DNA of 64,000 nt from a virus (IMGVR_UViG_2695420521_000002:32001-96000), one strand, 5' to 3'; counted from the first letter of the stretch, positions 45-51,375 are shown. Numbers and translations: made by a program. The notes: generated by a model from the sequence alone, not told the origin.

Positions 45-61
45 AGAATTATTAGAGCAAT
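45..61 (-). promoter_or_regulatory. C1 repressor operator-like 17-mer
   Basis: agaattattagagcaat on + strand; 15/17 to reverse complement of P1 C1 consensus ATTGCTCTAATAAATTT. Confidence 0.6.
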
Positions 62-127
62 AAGTTTTGAGAGAAAAATCCCACTCCACCAGCAAAAAAC
101 TGGATTGTTTTTCATAGTTGTTTGACA

Positions 128-144
128 ATTGCTCTAATAAATTA
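128..144 (+). promoter_or_regulatory. C1 repressor operator-like 17-mer
   Basis: attgctctaataaatta; 16/17 to consensus; faces the 45..61 site, upstream of coi-c1. Confidence 0.65.
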
Positions 145-382
145 TAGTTTTGCCGCCGTTTCGTAATACAACTTGGGATTCACTATTTAATGTGTCTTCA
201 GCGTTGTAGAGCGGCTCAGAAGGAAATGAGCAAACAGGGAAACCTTATACAACGGCATTACAGCTATGCATTGCTCATCTTACACACAGCGCAATGTTGT
301 TAGATTACCCCAGCATGGATCATGGGTGAAACAGTAGGTCAGAGCTCCAGGCTCTGTGTTGTCAATACAGTGAGGCATAATT

Positions 383-592
383 ATGGCTTTCATTCAACCA
401 ACCATCGACGACGTTAGACATTGCTCTAACGCTTTATCTGTAGACCCTGCCGAAACCGACGCAGCCCGCGCCATTGCTGAACACTACTCAAAGATATCCA
501 ATCAGGAGTACCGCATCACCCAAGACGACCTGGATGACCTCACTGACACAATCGAATATCTCATGGCAACTAACCAGTTAGACTCACAATAA
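383..592 (+). CDS. coi: Coi, C1 inactivator
   Basis: 69-aa ORF immediately upstream of c1; size and position match P1 coi. Confidence 0.8.
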   Translation: MAFIQPTIDDVRHCSNALSVDPAETDAARAIAEHYSKISNQEYRITQDDLDDLTDTIEYLMATNQLDSQ

Positions 593-702
593 ATGCACTA
601 ATAAATCTATTATTTTTGTTTGATCCCTCTATAATATAGGTCAGTAATGACCGGTTTTCTCAGCCGGGCGTTATTGACCATGTCAATTCTGGAGGAGGAT
701 CA

Positions 703-1554
703 ATGATAAATTATGTCTACGGCGAACAACTGTACCAGGAGTTCGTCAGCTTCAGGGATCTCTTTCTAAAAAAAGCTGTTGCACGCGCCCAACACGTTGA
801 TACCGCCAGCGACGGTCGTCCTGTACGCCCGGTTGTCGTTCTACCGTTCAAAGAAACGGACAGCATTCAGGCTGAAATTGATAAATGGACTTTAATGGCG
901 CGGGAACTGGAACAGTACCCAGACCTCAATATCCCAAAGACTATTTTATATCCAGTGCCTAACATCCTTCGCGGTGTGCGCAAGGTTACAACTTATCAGA
1001 CAGAAGCTGTGAACAGCGTCAACATGACCGCTGGCCGCATTATTCATCTGATTGATAAGGACATTCGCATCCAAAAAAGCGCGGGGATCAATGAGCACAG
1101 TGCGAAATACATAGAGAACCTGGAAGCAACAAAAGAGCTAATGAGGCAGTACCCGGAGGATGAAAAATTCCGTATGCGTGTACACGGCTTTAGCGAAACA
1201 ATGCTGCGCGTCCACTACATCTCCAGTAGCCCTAACTACAATGATGGTAAATCAGTTAGTTACCATGTACCGCTGTGTGGCGTGTTTATCTGCGATGAAA
1301 CTCTCCGTGATGGAATCATCATCAACGGTGAATTCGAAAAAGCAAAATTTAGCCTTTATGACTCCATAGAACCGATCATCTGCGACCGCTGGCCGCAAGC
1401 AAAAATATATCGCCTGGCAGATATTGAAAATGTAAAAAAACAAATTGCCATCACTCGCGAAGAGAAAAAGGTTAAGTCAGCCGCATCAGTTACGCGCAGC
1501 CGTAAAACCAAGAAGGGGCAGCCAGTAAACGACAACCCCGAAAGCGCGCAATAA
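703..1554 (+). CDS. c1: C1 primary immunity repressor
   Basis: 283-aa ORF recognised as P1 C1 (MINYVYGEQLYQEF...); cognate operators scattered through the window. Confidence 0.9.
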   Translation: MINYVYGEQLYQEFVSFRDLFLKKAVARAQHVDTASDGRPVRPVVVLPFKETDSIQAEIDKWTLMARELEQYPDLNIPKTILYPVPNILRGVRKVTTYQTEAVNSVNMTAGRIIHLIDKDIRIQKSAGINEHSAKYIENLEATKELMRQYPEDEKFRMRVHGFSETMLRVHYISSSPNYNDGKSVSYHVPLCGVFICDETLRDGIIINGEFEKAKFSLYDSIEPIICDRWPQAKIYRLADIENVKKQIAITREEKKVKSAASVTRSRKTKKGQPVNDNPESAQ

Positions 1555-1557
1555 ATT

Positions 1558-1579
1558 ATGCCCGGCATCAACCGGGCAT
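1558..1579. terminator. bidirectional hairpin between convergent c1 and ant
   Basis: 8-bp stem atgcccgg/ccgggcat with 6-nt loop, AT-rich flanks. Confidence 0.5.
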
Positions 1580-1586
1580 TCTTCCA

Positions 1587-48797: not shown

Positions 48798-48826
48798 TAC
48801 AATGCTGGTGGTTCTTACTACGTCTG

Positions 48827-49627
48827 TTAGCGCGTTGCCGCGACAGGTACCAGCACACCAGCATCAAGCAATCGCTTCATCAGCCACTGCTGACCTTTGC
48901 CGGTTATACGAGTCGTGAAAGAAATCCTGCTTCCATTGCTTGTATCGATCACGGTTTCTTTAAGGGTGAAATACCCACGGGATATGTATTCTTGTTTGGG
49001 GACGTTCCTGCGTTCACCGGTTGCGATCAGAATTCCGTTATCACGCAACCAGGTGAAGAGATAGTTTTGGCCCAGGCCGAGCACTTTGGCATAGTTGCCG
49101 ATTAGAACCCCGCTGGCGGTAGCAACGCGTTCGGCGAATTCGACTTTAGGTGCATCCATAAGCATTTTTTGCTCCAGCCGTTGCTTTTGCTCTGCCAGGT
49201 CGGCAGCCAAACGGAGAGCTTCAGGGAGACTCTGCGGAATAGCTGGTTGTAATCTTCCGGCTCGATAGTCGATAAATGTCTGGTTTACCTTCAGCCGAAA
49301 CGCGGGAGAAATCCAGCCTGCGTACTCCACAGCGAGCAATTCATGGGCAAAAGTGCCGCCGCCACGGCCTTCGAACGAAACTATGCAATTCTGCATAGTT
49401 TCTTTTTCAAGCTCTTCGATGAGCTGTTTGGCTGACAGCGTTCTTAGCCATTGAGCTGGCGCTTTATGGGTACCGAGTCCGCTTGCTCTGTGTAGAGCAT
49501 TAAGGTTGTAACGGCCAGCGCGGTCGGTCGTAATTTCAACACCACAAATAACAGGCAGAGTGGTTGAAGGATCGACATTTTGATGAAGGTTTGATATATT
49601 CATATCTGCATTGAGTGTTTGTTGCAT
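48827..49627 (-). CDS. kilA: KilA (KilA-N domain plus KilAC C-terminal domain)
   Basis: 266 aa; C-terminus paralogous to Ant C-termini; preceded by C1 operator. Confidence 0.7.
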   Translation of the reverse strand: MQQTLNADMNISNLHQNVDPSTTLPVICGVEITTDRAGRYNLNALHRASGLGTHKAPAQWLRTLSAKQLIEELEKETMQNCIVSFEGRGGGTFAHELLAVEYAGWISPAFRLKVNQTFIDYRAGRLQPAIPQSLPEALRLAADLAEQKQRLEQKMLMDAPKVEFAERVATASGVLIGNYAKVLGLGQNYLFTWLRDNGILIATGERRNVPKQEYISRGYFTLKETVIDTSNGSRISFTTRITGKGQQWLMKRLLDAGVLVPVAATR

Positions 49628-49696
49628 TTTTTCTCCAAATTTGCATCAACCTTCAATCACCAGCTCGAAATGGTGATTCTTTGCACTTAGAAAACG

Positions 49697-49713
49697 AAAT
49701 TTATTAGAGCAAA
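49697..49713 (-). promoter_or_regulatory. C1 operator-like 17-mer (Op53-like)
   Basis: aaatttattagagcaaa; 16/17. Confidence 0.65.
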
Positions 49714-49791
49714 TTTTTCTAGCTCGATCCAGATCGGGTTGGTCGATCTGCTCAGAAACCTGCCAGTTTGCTGGCAGGTTTTTTTCTTTTG

Positions 49792-50826
49792 TTAACCTAT
49801 TGCTACTGGTTTTAACAAACCAGCATCAAGTAGCTTGCGAGTTAACCACTGCTGGCCTTTACCCGTTAATTGGGGCGTCAGCCGTATCTGATAGCCATTT
49901 TCATCATCCAGCACCACTTCTTTCACCGTGAAATACCCGGCGTTAATGTACTGCTGGCGCGGTACGTTTTTGCGCGCACCAAAAGCCATGAGAATGCCGT
50001 TCTGGCGCAACCATGAGAAAAGGGCGTTTTGCTTAAGTCCAACGACCTTTGCAAAGTTCCCGATCAGGATTCCATTAGCCACTGATACCCGGTCGGCAAA
50101 ATCGACTTTAGGGGCAGCGGCCACCAGCTGTTGTTCCAGCTGCATTTTCTGTTCTGCCAACTCGGCAGCCAGGCGTAGAGCTTCTGGTAATGTTTGGGGG
50201 ATCTATGGGGTAGGGGAGTTTGCCTGCTGCAATTCTTCCAGTTTGTCGATCAGCGAACGGCGGACCGCTTTTGACTCGCGCGCGGCAACTCGCAGAGCTT
50301 GTTTGTAGGTCATGGTTATAATATCTATTTCTGCGCCGTTTTTTTGACCTACGAAAATTTCGTAGGTTTCTCCTTCAAGCTCATCCTTAACTCTGGCAAT
50401 GAAATCATTGTTGCGAACTGGTTTTTCGCTACATAATTTCCGTGCCTCATTGACCATCTTCAACAATGTTTGGCTGTCGATTGTGTCTCCGGTGTTGGGG
50501 ATGACATTCAGGGCTGGTGCTGGCGTAGCTGAAGCAACAGGTGCTGGTTTTTCAACATTTAAATTATTACCGGTCATTCTATGTGCCTCCTTTCTCATTT
50601 CTGCTGCCACTGTTGCGTAACGTAGACGTCCTTGTTCAATCAAATAATCCCTGATCTCGGCTATCAGTAGCCTGTTGATCACAGCCTTATCTGTTCGGGT
50701 ATAAAAACGTCTGGTTATCATGAAATAGTTGGCAATTGCGCCGGGGATCTCCCGTGTCGGCATACAGGTTGTATGCAAAGCGATCGCTTCGGCTATTTCA
50801 TTACGGGTGACGAGAGGTGTTTTCAT
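49792..50826 (-). pseudogene. ant: antirepressor ant interrupted by in-frame TAG
   Basis: 207-aa N-terminal ORF and 122-aa KilAC ORF are in the same frame, separated by TAG (plus-strand cta at 50203..50205) and 14 codons. Confidence 0.5.
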
Positions 50827-51044
50827 AAACCCCCCTGAACGTTGGCAGAGAAGGGGAGGCTCCAGTAACTAAGTGAATTGCGCGAGTTAGTTGAAAAACG
50901 GGCAGTAAAAATGCAGGGGCCATCAGGCAATTGAGAGCGTGCTTCGTCTTCTGTTGCTGCGATAACGAAGTGATAGTGGTGTTTTTTACAGGAATAGAAA
51001 CGCCAGATGAATTCTTGGCGTGCGCAAGGATTGGCATTAACCAT
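50823..51044 (-). CDS. icd: Icd-like cell division inhibitor
   Basis: 73 aa, paralog of 2699..2920, overlaps ant start by 4 nt. Confidence 0.7.
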   Translation of the reverse strand: MVNANPCARQEFIWRFYSCKKHHYHFVIAATEDEARSQLPDGPCIFTARFSTNSRNSLSYWSLPFSANVQGGL

Positions 51045-51355
51045 AGTTACGGCCTCACAATCAGGTTTAACAACCTGCTACCCGCTGCTAAACAGGTGGC
51101 AGGACGTGACGGGGTTAGCAGACTGGCGATTGTGAAACCAGCAGGCCGAAGCCTCCCCATCACGCCCCACCATAATTTGGGCGTAACGCGGTTTTATGGA
51201 CACAAAAATACCGCAATATCGGATATCTGCGGCTGTCCGCACAATCATTCAGGCTGCTAAACCCGGTCGCAGAATTTGCTACGACGGCGGAACTATAAGC
51301 CTGAACGATTAAAAGGTCAATATGATGCGAAAAGATAGCATTCGCGACTTAAAAA
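51045..51355 (-). ncRNA. leader expected to encode c4-like antisense repressor RNA (boundaries not determined)
   Basis: non-coding, hairpin with T-run at 51199..51232 on - strand; sequence unlike 2921..3258. Confidence 0.3.
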
Positions 51356-51358
51356 TAC

Positions 51359-51375
51359 AAATTTATTAGAGCATT
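51359..51375 (-). promoter_or_regulatory. C1 operator-like 17-mer (Op51-like)
   Basis: aaatttattagagcatt; 16/17; next to TATAAT at 51381. Confidence 0.65.

Follow-up and report, generated by a model that had tools for sequence, protein, structure and literature searches.

Predicted C1 operators at the heads of the early operons of a P1-like phage-plasmid, with an additional predicted operator before a second immI-type module

The 17-mers dispersed over IMGVR_UViG_2695420521_000002:32001-96000, a viral DNA stretch of 64,000 nucleotides (the window), are with a probability of about 93% operators of C1, the master lysogeny repressor of the P1-like phage-plasmid. The window is a P1-like (Punavirus) genome with 95-98% identity to P1, P7, RCS47, JL22, and SJ46 by megablast. 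C1 binding in P1 is known from footprinting and genetics, and from these together with the annotation of the P1 record, C1 would be expected to bind and repress at the corresponding sites of this element. A citing paper (PMC8546580) gives P1 a total of 22 dispersed C1 operators with the asymmetric consensus ATTGCTCTAATAAATTT and credits the P1 genome paper for this. After correction, the map of the window comprises 17 sites, which fall into 13 control regions, and a further candidate at 12929 (Table 1).

Correspondence with the curated operators of P1

The curated record AF234172 was used as the P1 reference for the annotation of operators and promoters. The window is oriented as the reverse complement of this reference, and its position 1 falls within the lox site. 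The part of P1 corresponding to the window carries 17 “phage repressor C1” protein_bind sites in AF234172, which were placed on the window one by one, each with its flanks. Sixteen of them were retained at the same positions and beside the same neighbouring genes, and 14 of the 16 were identical in sequence. The other site, Orlf/Op55, was absent from the window by flank mapping because its region, the rlfA-rlfB segment, has been replaced.

A previous reading made from the sequence alone (the sequence-only reading) had placed C1 operators at the heads of lytic operons, and this core agreed site for site with the curated P1 annotation. A 17-mer within zero to three mismatches of ATTGCTCTAATAAATTT was found at all 13 coordinates that it listed, and 12 of these 13 were positional orthologues of AF234172 operators with identical 17-mers, the site at 3260 being the sole exception. 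The gene labels coi-c1, lpa/pacAB, tRNA-ban, kilA-repL, and icd-ant were also correct. Its title spoke of at least 14 sites where the list gave 13, and the annotated weaker sites Op99c (420), Op99a (592), Op99b (603), and Op83 (18082) had been overlooked.

Two paired arrangements described in that reading were recovered. The overlapping pair at 30857/30868 is a bivalent operator with a 6-bp overlap and one perfect site, which lies over P1ban/P2ban and is predicted to control the tRNA-tci-ban-dbn operon, whose tRNAs were found; the same inverted arrangement with a 6-bp overlap occurs at c1 (592/603). The inverted pair at 15316/15365 does surround a palindrome, with 11-bp arms at 15329-15356.

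According to the record, the majority of these operators in P1 share bases with a promoter hexamer or directly adjoin one. Op51, Op68, and Op94 meet the -35 element, Op86a and Op88 contain it, Op99d fills the P1coi spacer, Op53 covers the -10 element of PkilA, and Op72a/b covers both ban promoters. The promoter positions in the window were transferred from this annotation over DNA of 96-99% identity. Since the operator regions are 96-99% identical to those of P1, the same promoter-occlusion mechanism is expected here. C1 would bind each asymmetric 17-bp site, the bivalent sites representing two overlapping inverted copies, and because most of the sites coincide with the -35 or -10 element of a sigma-70 promoter or are adjacent to it, the bound C1 would exclude RNA polymerase. 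C1 would thereby silence coi and, by autoregulation, c1 itself, both antirepressor modules (c4-icd-ant), lpa, the gene of the late-promoter activator, pmgR-pmgS plus the promoter driving pmgT in P1, pmgN-ppp-pmgQ, the pmgL/gene 26 region, the tRNA-ban helicase operon, the uhr-hrdC-dmt methylase operon, and kilA-repL. The statement that operators stand before almost every lytic operon held for the early class but not for the structural and packaging operons, which are headed by Lpa-type late promoters without an operator. The late structural operons would be controlled by C1 indirectly, via lpa behind Op94, because they depend on Lpa.

Specificity of the operator motif

A mismatch scan of the window with ATTGCTCTAATAAATTT gave 15 matches at up to three mismatches, against 0.36 expected and a maximum of two in 100 dinucleotide shuffles, and 10 matches at up to two mismatches, against 0.02 expected. 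The sites added by the three-mismatch scan to the 13 listed before were 592 (+), which is Op99a, and 4054 (+). In an unbiased count of 10-mers, the operator core TGCTCTAATA / TTGCTCTAAT was the top over-represented 10-mer in the window, with 11 copies each, and the RepA iterons ranked second.

A position weight matrix (PWM) trained on the operator sequences of the P1 record gave 17 matches in the window at 14 bits or more (0.87 expected), with a clean gap in the score distribution beneath the real sites; the training set consists of the P1 orthologues of the window sites, and only the scores of 3260 and 12929 are truly out-of-sample. All 15 matches at 18 bits or more were non-coding or straddled a gene end, in a window of which only about 11% is non-coding, so that equal frequency of such 17-mers within coding sequence, named by the sequence-only reading as the finding that would speak against it, was not what was observed. 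The locations within coding sequence were limited to Oc1c, which P1 likewise carries inside coi, and to 4054, a doubtful site.

Three further matches were rejected as operators. The 17-mer at 4054..4070 (+), with three mismatches and 13.4 bits, lies inside pacB, has a broken core (GCTCGTAT), and scores in the chance range; its sequence is tied to one pacB allele and is absent from the loci with an allele of 88% identity. The matches at 46202 (13.2 bits) and 12596, with four mismatches, were at chance level.

Table 1. Predicted C1 operators and other features of the window (64,000 nucleotides); early-promoter positions are transferred from P1
Feature	Position	Strand	Sequence	Remarks
Oc1e / Op99e	45..61	-	ATTGCTCTAATAATTCT	identical to P1 94724-94740 (C1 protein_bind); faces left to cre, beyond the window
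Oc1d / Op99d	128..144	+		P1-identical 17-mer; in spacer of P1coi, driver of imcA-imcB-coi-c1
Oc1c / Op99c (weak)	420..436	+	ATTGCTCTAACGCTTTA	P1-identical; inside coi; PWM 15.3 bits
Oc1a / Op99a	592..608	+	AATGCACTAATAAATCT	P1-identical; overlaps -35 of Pc1; predicted to mediate c1 autoregulation
Oc1b / Op99b	603..619	-	ACAAAAATAATAGATTT	degenerate second half of bivalent Oc1ab; one difference from P1
Extra operator (predicted)	3260..3276	-	CTTGCTCTAATAAATTG	no P1 counterpart; PWM 20.9 bits; heads second immI-type module
Olpa / Op94	6564..6580	-		P1-identical; predicted to control lpa (6493-6041), late-promoter activator
Candidate weak site	12929..12945	-	CATGCTCTAATATATCG	core intact; 5 mismatches; PWM 14.7 bits
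OpmgT / Op88	13223..13239	-		P1-identical; precedes pmgT-U-V in P1, genes replaced here
OpmgRb / Op86b	15316..15332	+		P1-identical
OpmgRa / Op86a	15365..15381	-		P1-identical; overlaps -35 of PpmgR (pmgR-pmgS)
Oppp / Op83 (weak)	18082..18098	+	TATGCACTAATTAATTT	one base off P1; before pmgN-ppp-pmgQ; PWM 18.0 bits
O26 / Op82	18989..19005	+		P1-identical; divergent pmgL / gene 26 control region, beside LP26 and LPpmgL
Obanb / Op72b	30857..30873	+		P1-identical
Obana / Op72a	30868..30884	-		P1-identical; perfect consensus
Odmt / Op68	34390..34406	-		P1-identical; abuts -35 of Pdmt (uhr-hrdC-dmt)
OrepL / Op53	49697..49713	-		P1-identical; overlaps -10 of PkilA (kilA-repL, lytic replication)
Oc4 / Op51	51359..51375	-		P1-identical; heads native immI
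coi, C1 inactivator gene	383..592	+		intact open reading frame; P1 and RCS47 annotation
c1, repressor gene	703..1554	+		283 amino acids; 280/283 residues as in P1 C1.100 (99%)
Second immI-type module	1587..3259	-		between pacB and c1; leader, C4, icd, ant
ant of second module, intact	2702-1587	-		ORF6N + KilAC domains (Pfam); overlaps icd
icd-like gene of second module	2920-2699	-		about 81% identity between the Icd copies
C4 antisense RNA of second module	3062-2975	-		Rfam RF01695, 76.7 bits (gathering threshold 45)
isrK-like leader of second module	3185-3107	-		Rfam isrK, 62.4 bits; terminator 3128-3112
Native immI icd	51044-50823	-
Native immI C4 antisense RNA	51177-51092	-
Native immI a1b1 leader	51298-51246	-
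Late promoter LPpac	5995-6013
Late promoter LPpmgL	19020-19038
Late promoter LP26	19030-19048
Late promoter LP23	40708-40726
Late promoter LPsit	53017-53035
Late promoter LPs	61277-61295
Adhesin gene	8910-12545	-		inverse autotransporter (intimin/invasin-type), 1211 amino acids; Pfam
YeeE/Sulf_transp family membrane protein gene	23971-25134	+		Pfam; between tail gene 5 and dbn
Ail/Lom-family outer-membrane protein gene	47357-47872	-		replaces P1 rlfA-rlfB segment with Op55
sim-like genes	51445-52922			divergent from Op51; first reading frame 70 bp from Op51

A second immI-type module behind the predicted operator at 3260

The gap between pacB and c1 measures 24 bp in P1 and is occupied in the window by a 1.7-kb insertion, whose operator (3276-3260) begins five bases past the pacB stop codon. 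Both the native and the inserted module share the architecture of the immI region of P1/P7 (Op51 - P51a/P51b - c4 antisense RNA - icd - ant1/2), in the order operator, a1/b1-target leader, C4, a2/b2 targets over the icd ribosome-binding site, icd, and ant. The inserted module differs in its location between pacB and c1, in its leader, which matches Rfam isrK rather than c4-a1b1, and in an Ant with ORF6N. A weak promoter read directly from the sequence, TTGTGT-17-TACATT, overlaps the 3' end of the operator at 3260 and is aligned with, and positionally equivalent to, P51a of P1.

The antisense recognition elements of the inserted module were found in duplicate. The a element TTGGAAC is present in two copies with its complement GTTCCAA in C4, and the b element GCAAAAGG is likewise present in two copies with its complement CCTTTTGC in C4, the second b copy lying within the AAAGGAGG Shine-Dalgarno sequence of icd. 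In a four-way alignment of the P1, P7, native, and inserted modules, the inserted module represented a third recognition set, in which the two target copies have changed in full compensation with C4. In the native module, C4 and the targets were identical to those of P7 (a = TTAGCAG, b = GATTGTG). Because the C4 recognition sets differ, the native and inserted antisense systems are probably orthogonal. The Ant of the second module, homologous to P1 Ant1 at its N-/C-terminus, would antagonise C1.

Our results also showed that codon 208 of the native ant1 (50205-50203, minus strand) is an in-frame amber TAG, where P1 has TCG (Ser), and that the native ant is split into the reading frames 50826-50203 and 50160-49792; of five related IMG/VR loci that were compared, three likewise have Ser at this codon. 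As a consequence of the amber codon, native Ant1 and Ant2 would lose the KilAC domain. It is a tentative idea, which we consider rather less probable than its opposite, that this P1-like lineage has two antirepressor switches gated by C1 operators, of which the second would function as an orthogonal immI and thereby extend the set of relatives that can set off induction or withstand it. If this is true, the relatives concerned would be superinfecting or co-resident ones, and the ant of the second module would be the only intact antirepressor of this element because of the amber codon in the native ant.

The conservation of the operator was surveyed in 79 IMG/VR loci encoding this Icd, with 80 icd copies. 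An operator with up to three mismatches was located 335-361 nt upstream of icd on the same strand in 78 of the 80 copies, including 20 outside the pacB-c1 context, and its core was nearly invariant. The site sequence, a geometry identical to that of Op51/P51a, and this conservation in related modules point to a role of 3260 as a C1 operator. The alternative for this site is that it is an unused passenger of the inserted module and that the second icd-ant is controlled solely by its own C4 RNA. The two end mismatches (bases C1 and G17) and the acquisition of the module by insertion, where P1 has 24 bp, would fit such a passenger, but the score of the site lies within the range of strong operators, its near-invariant core stands at a fixed distance from icd also in modules outside pacB-c1, and its geometry mirrors Op51/P51a, which together make the passenger improbable and leave C1 control of the second module as the preferred explanation.

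Outside the pacB-c1 context, this Icd type was observed in the IMG/VR loci L066-L075, L080, and L082 with an operator of perfect consensus at -360, which in many cases has a second, inverted site as its partner at a distance of 16 bp. On one 103-kb contig (L070), two icd-ant modules diverge from each other, and either one has an operator of its own. The inserted module was covered to at least 80% in 321 PLSDB plasmids, and RCS47 carries it at 92% identity. The phage-plasmids of the RCS47 type (RCS47, JL22, pTZ20_1P) carry this ant insertion at the corresponding place, between pacB and c1; in the RCS47 record only ant is annotated there, with neither an operator nor a C4 RNA. Venturini et al. 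2019 described an antirepressor inserted between pacB and c1 and mentioned no operator or C4 RNA (PMC6906374), and no description of a C1-gated second immI was found in the literature searched. An Stx phage as the source of the whole module was considered and rejected, the BLAST matches to Stx phages covering only 117-140 bp, to ant and C4.

Cargo genes and their distance from operators

The adhesin, YeeE-like, Lom-like, and sim-like genes had been described by the sequence-only reading as lacking a nearby operator, and the four cases turned out differently. The YeeE-like gene, at a position that is empty in P1, had no operator within about 5 kb, as stated. For the Lom-like gene the description is plausible: a terminator-like hairpin (47942-47921) separates it from repL, although it lies downstream of repL on the same strand. 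The description failed for the sim-like genes, which begin close to Op51 on the divergent strand; in P1 the -35 element of the predicted PsimA sits 5 bp from Op51. It also failed for the adhesin gene: Op88/PpmgT lies on the same strand, 678 bp upstream of the gene start, and no minus-strand terminator-like site was found in the interval.

The adhesin gene replaces humD, lxr, hot, upfM-O, pmgV, pmgU, and pmgT of P1, with junctions near 8445-8909 and 12546-13122. The junction is shared by one PLSDB plasmid only, p2RM9976 of Escherichia albertii (from a crow), which suggests that the window derives from an IncY P1-like plasmid of E. albertii or E. coli. The candidate site at 12929, located 384 bp upstream of the adhesin start, has a score within the range of the annotated weak operators and five mismatches compatible with chance; it was kept in the single relative sharing the junction, but the entire region is 97% identical there. 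Next to the Lom-like gene, at the place of the 98-amino-acid pmgF of P1, a reading frame of 210 amino acids at 46234-46866 (+) had no Pfam match.

Two hairpins were observed beside operators. A strong hairpin of 15 pairs at 13163-13195, also present in P1, separates Op88 from the genes downstream of it; with its T-tail on the plus strand, the hairpin would act as a terminator for transcription running antisense to the Op88 unit. Op86a and Op86b, together with the inner hairpin with 11-bp arms, form a near-palindrome of 66 bp (15316-15381). Nested between both operators, the inner hairpin (AAAACGTGATG...CATCACGTTTT, with a T run after it on the minus strand) resembles a terminator that would belong to the upstream pmgN-pmgQ operon.

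Discussion

The operator map is a correct rediscovery of the known, dispersed C1 regulon, the textbook immunity circuit of P1, and the only new elements in it are the annotated second immI module and the operator assigned at 3260. The P1 operators (Op2-Op99, renamed Oc4, OrepL, Odmt, Oban, O26, Oppp, OpmgR, OpmgT, Olpa, and Oc1a-e in AF234172) and those of the window have the same consensus, the same asymmetry, and the same mixture of monovalent and bivalent sites. The window differs in the loss of Op55 (Orlf) together with rlfA/rlfB, in the position of Op88 before an adhesin gene, and in the extra site at 3260. The CI repressor of lambda is bound as a dimer to palindromic sites clustered at two control regions, OL and OR. 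Like CI, C1 of P1 is an autoregulated prophage master repressor that acts by occluding early lytic promoters, but its asymmetric 17-bp sites are scattered genome-wide, one per early operon.

Several observations weigh against the assignment of the 17-mers to an active C1 circuit. The element is devoid of pmgT-V, hot, humD, rlfA/B, and Op55, and with these losses it may not be fully functional as a phage. The annotated P1 sites Op99b and Op99c are too degenerate for identification by sequence alone; Oc1b could be recognised by position only, the leave-one-out PWM score of the P1 sequence being negative. In addition, a consensus promoter scan of the leader after 3260 found no promoter at the threshold of 9/12, a scan in which the experimentally known P51a of P1 is equally low (7/12).

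The operators might also be inherited remnants that no longer function in a decaying P1-derived plasmid and are conserved only through recent divergence from P1. The overall identity to P1 of 96-98% makes identity alone weak evidence of selection, several P1 genes have been replaced by the adhesin, YeeE-like, and Lom-like cargo, and the native ant carries an amber codon. However, 2 of 255 operator bases differed from P1, compared with 112 of 3000 bases in the ±100-bp flanks (Fisher p = 0.011), and this significantly better preservation argues against decayed, merely inherited sites. Op99a (Oc1a) remained unchanged although its surroundings have diverged by 13% from P1, c1 and coi are intact, and the same sites are retained in dozens of independent IMG/VR contigs, with which decay becomes a very unlikely explanation. 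That the 17-mers are promoter-like, AT-rich sequences that arose by chance, or that they serve another factor (Lpa, RepA, IHF), has a negligible probability: the motif is AT-rich and the non-coding DNA is AT-richer than coding sequence (GC 43.5% vs 47.5%), but a Markov simulation of the non-coding DNA alone expected 0.09 matches at up to three mismatches against 10 observed, which refutes chance statistically (the gene set behind this count included spurious antisense or over-extended reading frames covering 3260 and 34390, both non-coding after correction by P1 annotation and Rfam matches), the late-promoter boxes and RepA iterons differ in sequence, and the P1 record attributes these exact sites to C1.

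As operators of C1, the mapped sites can serve as an annotation aid for P1-like phage-plasmids, a group by which genes for resistance and virulence are disseminated, in that early units repressed by C1 can be told apart from cargo. The ant insertion that is widespread between pacB and c1 amounts to a complete immI module; it has a C4 specificity of its own and is predicted to be gated by C1. Moreover, cargo such as the adhesin can land right behind a C1-controlled promoter, and therefore the expression of cargo genes in the lysogen is not to be assumed.

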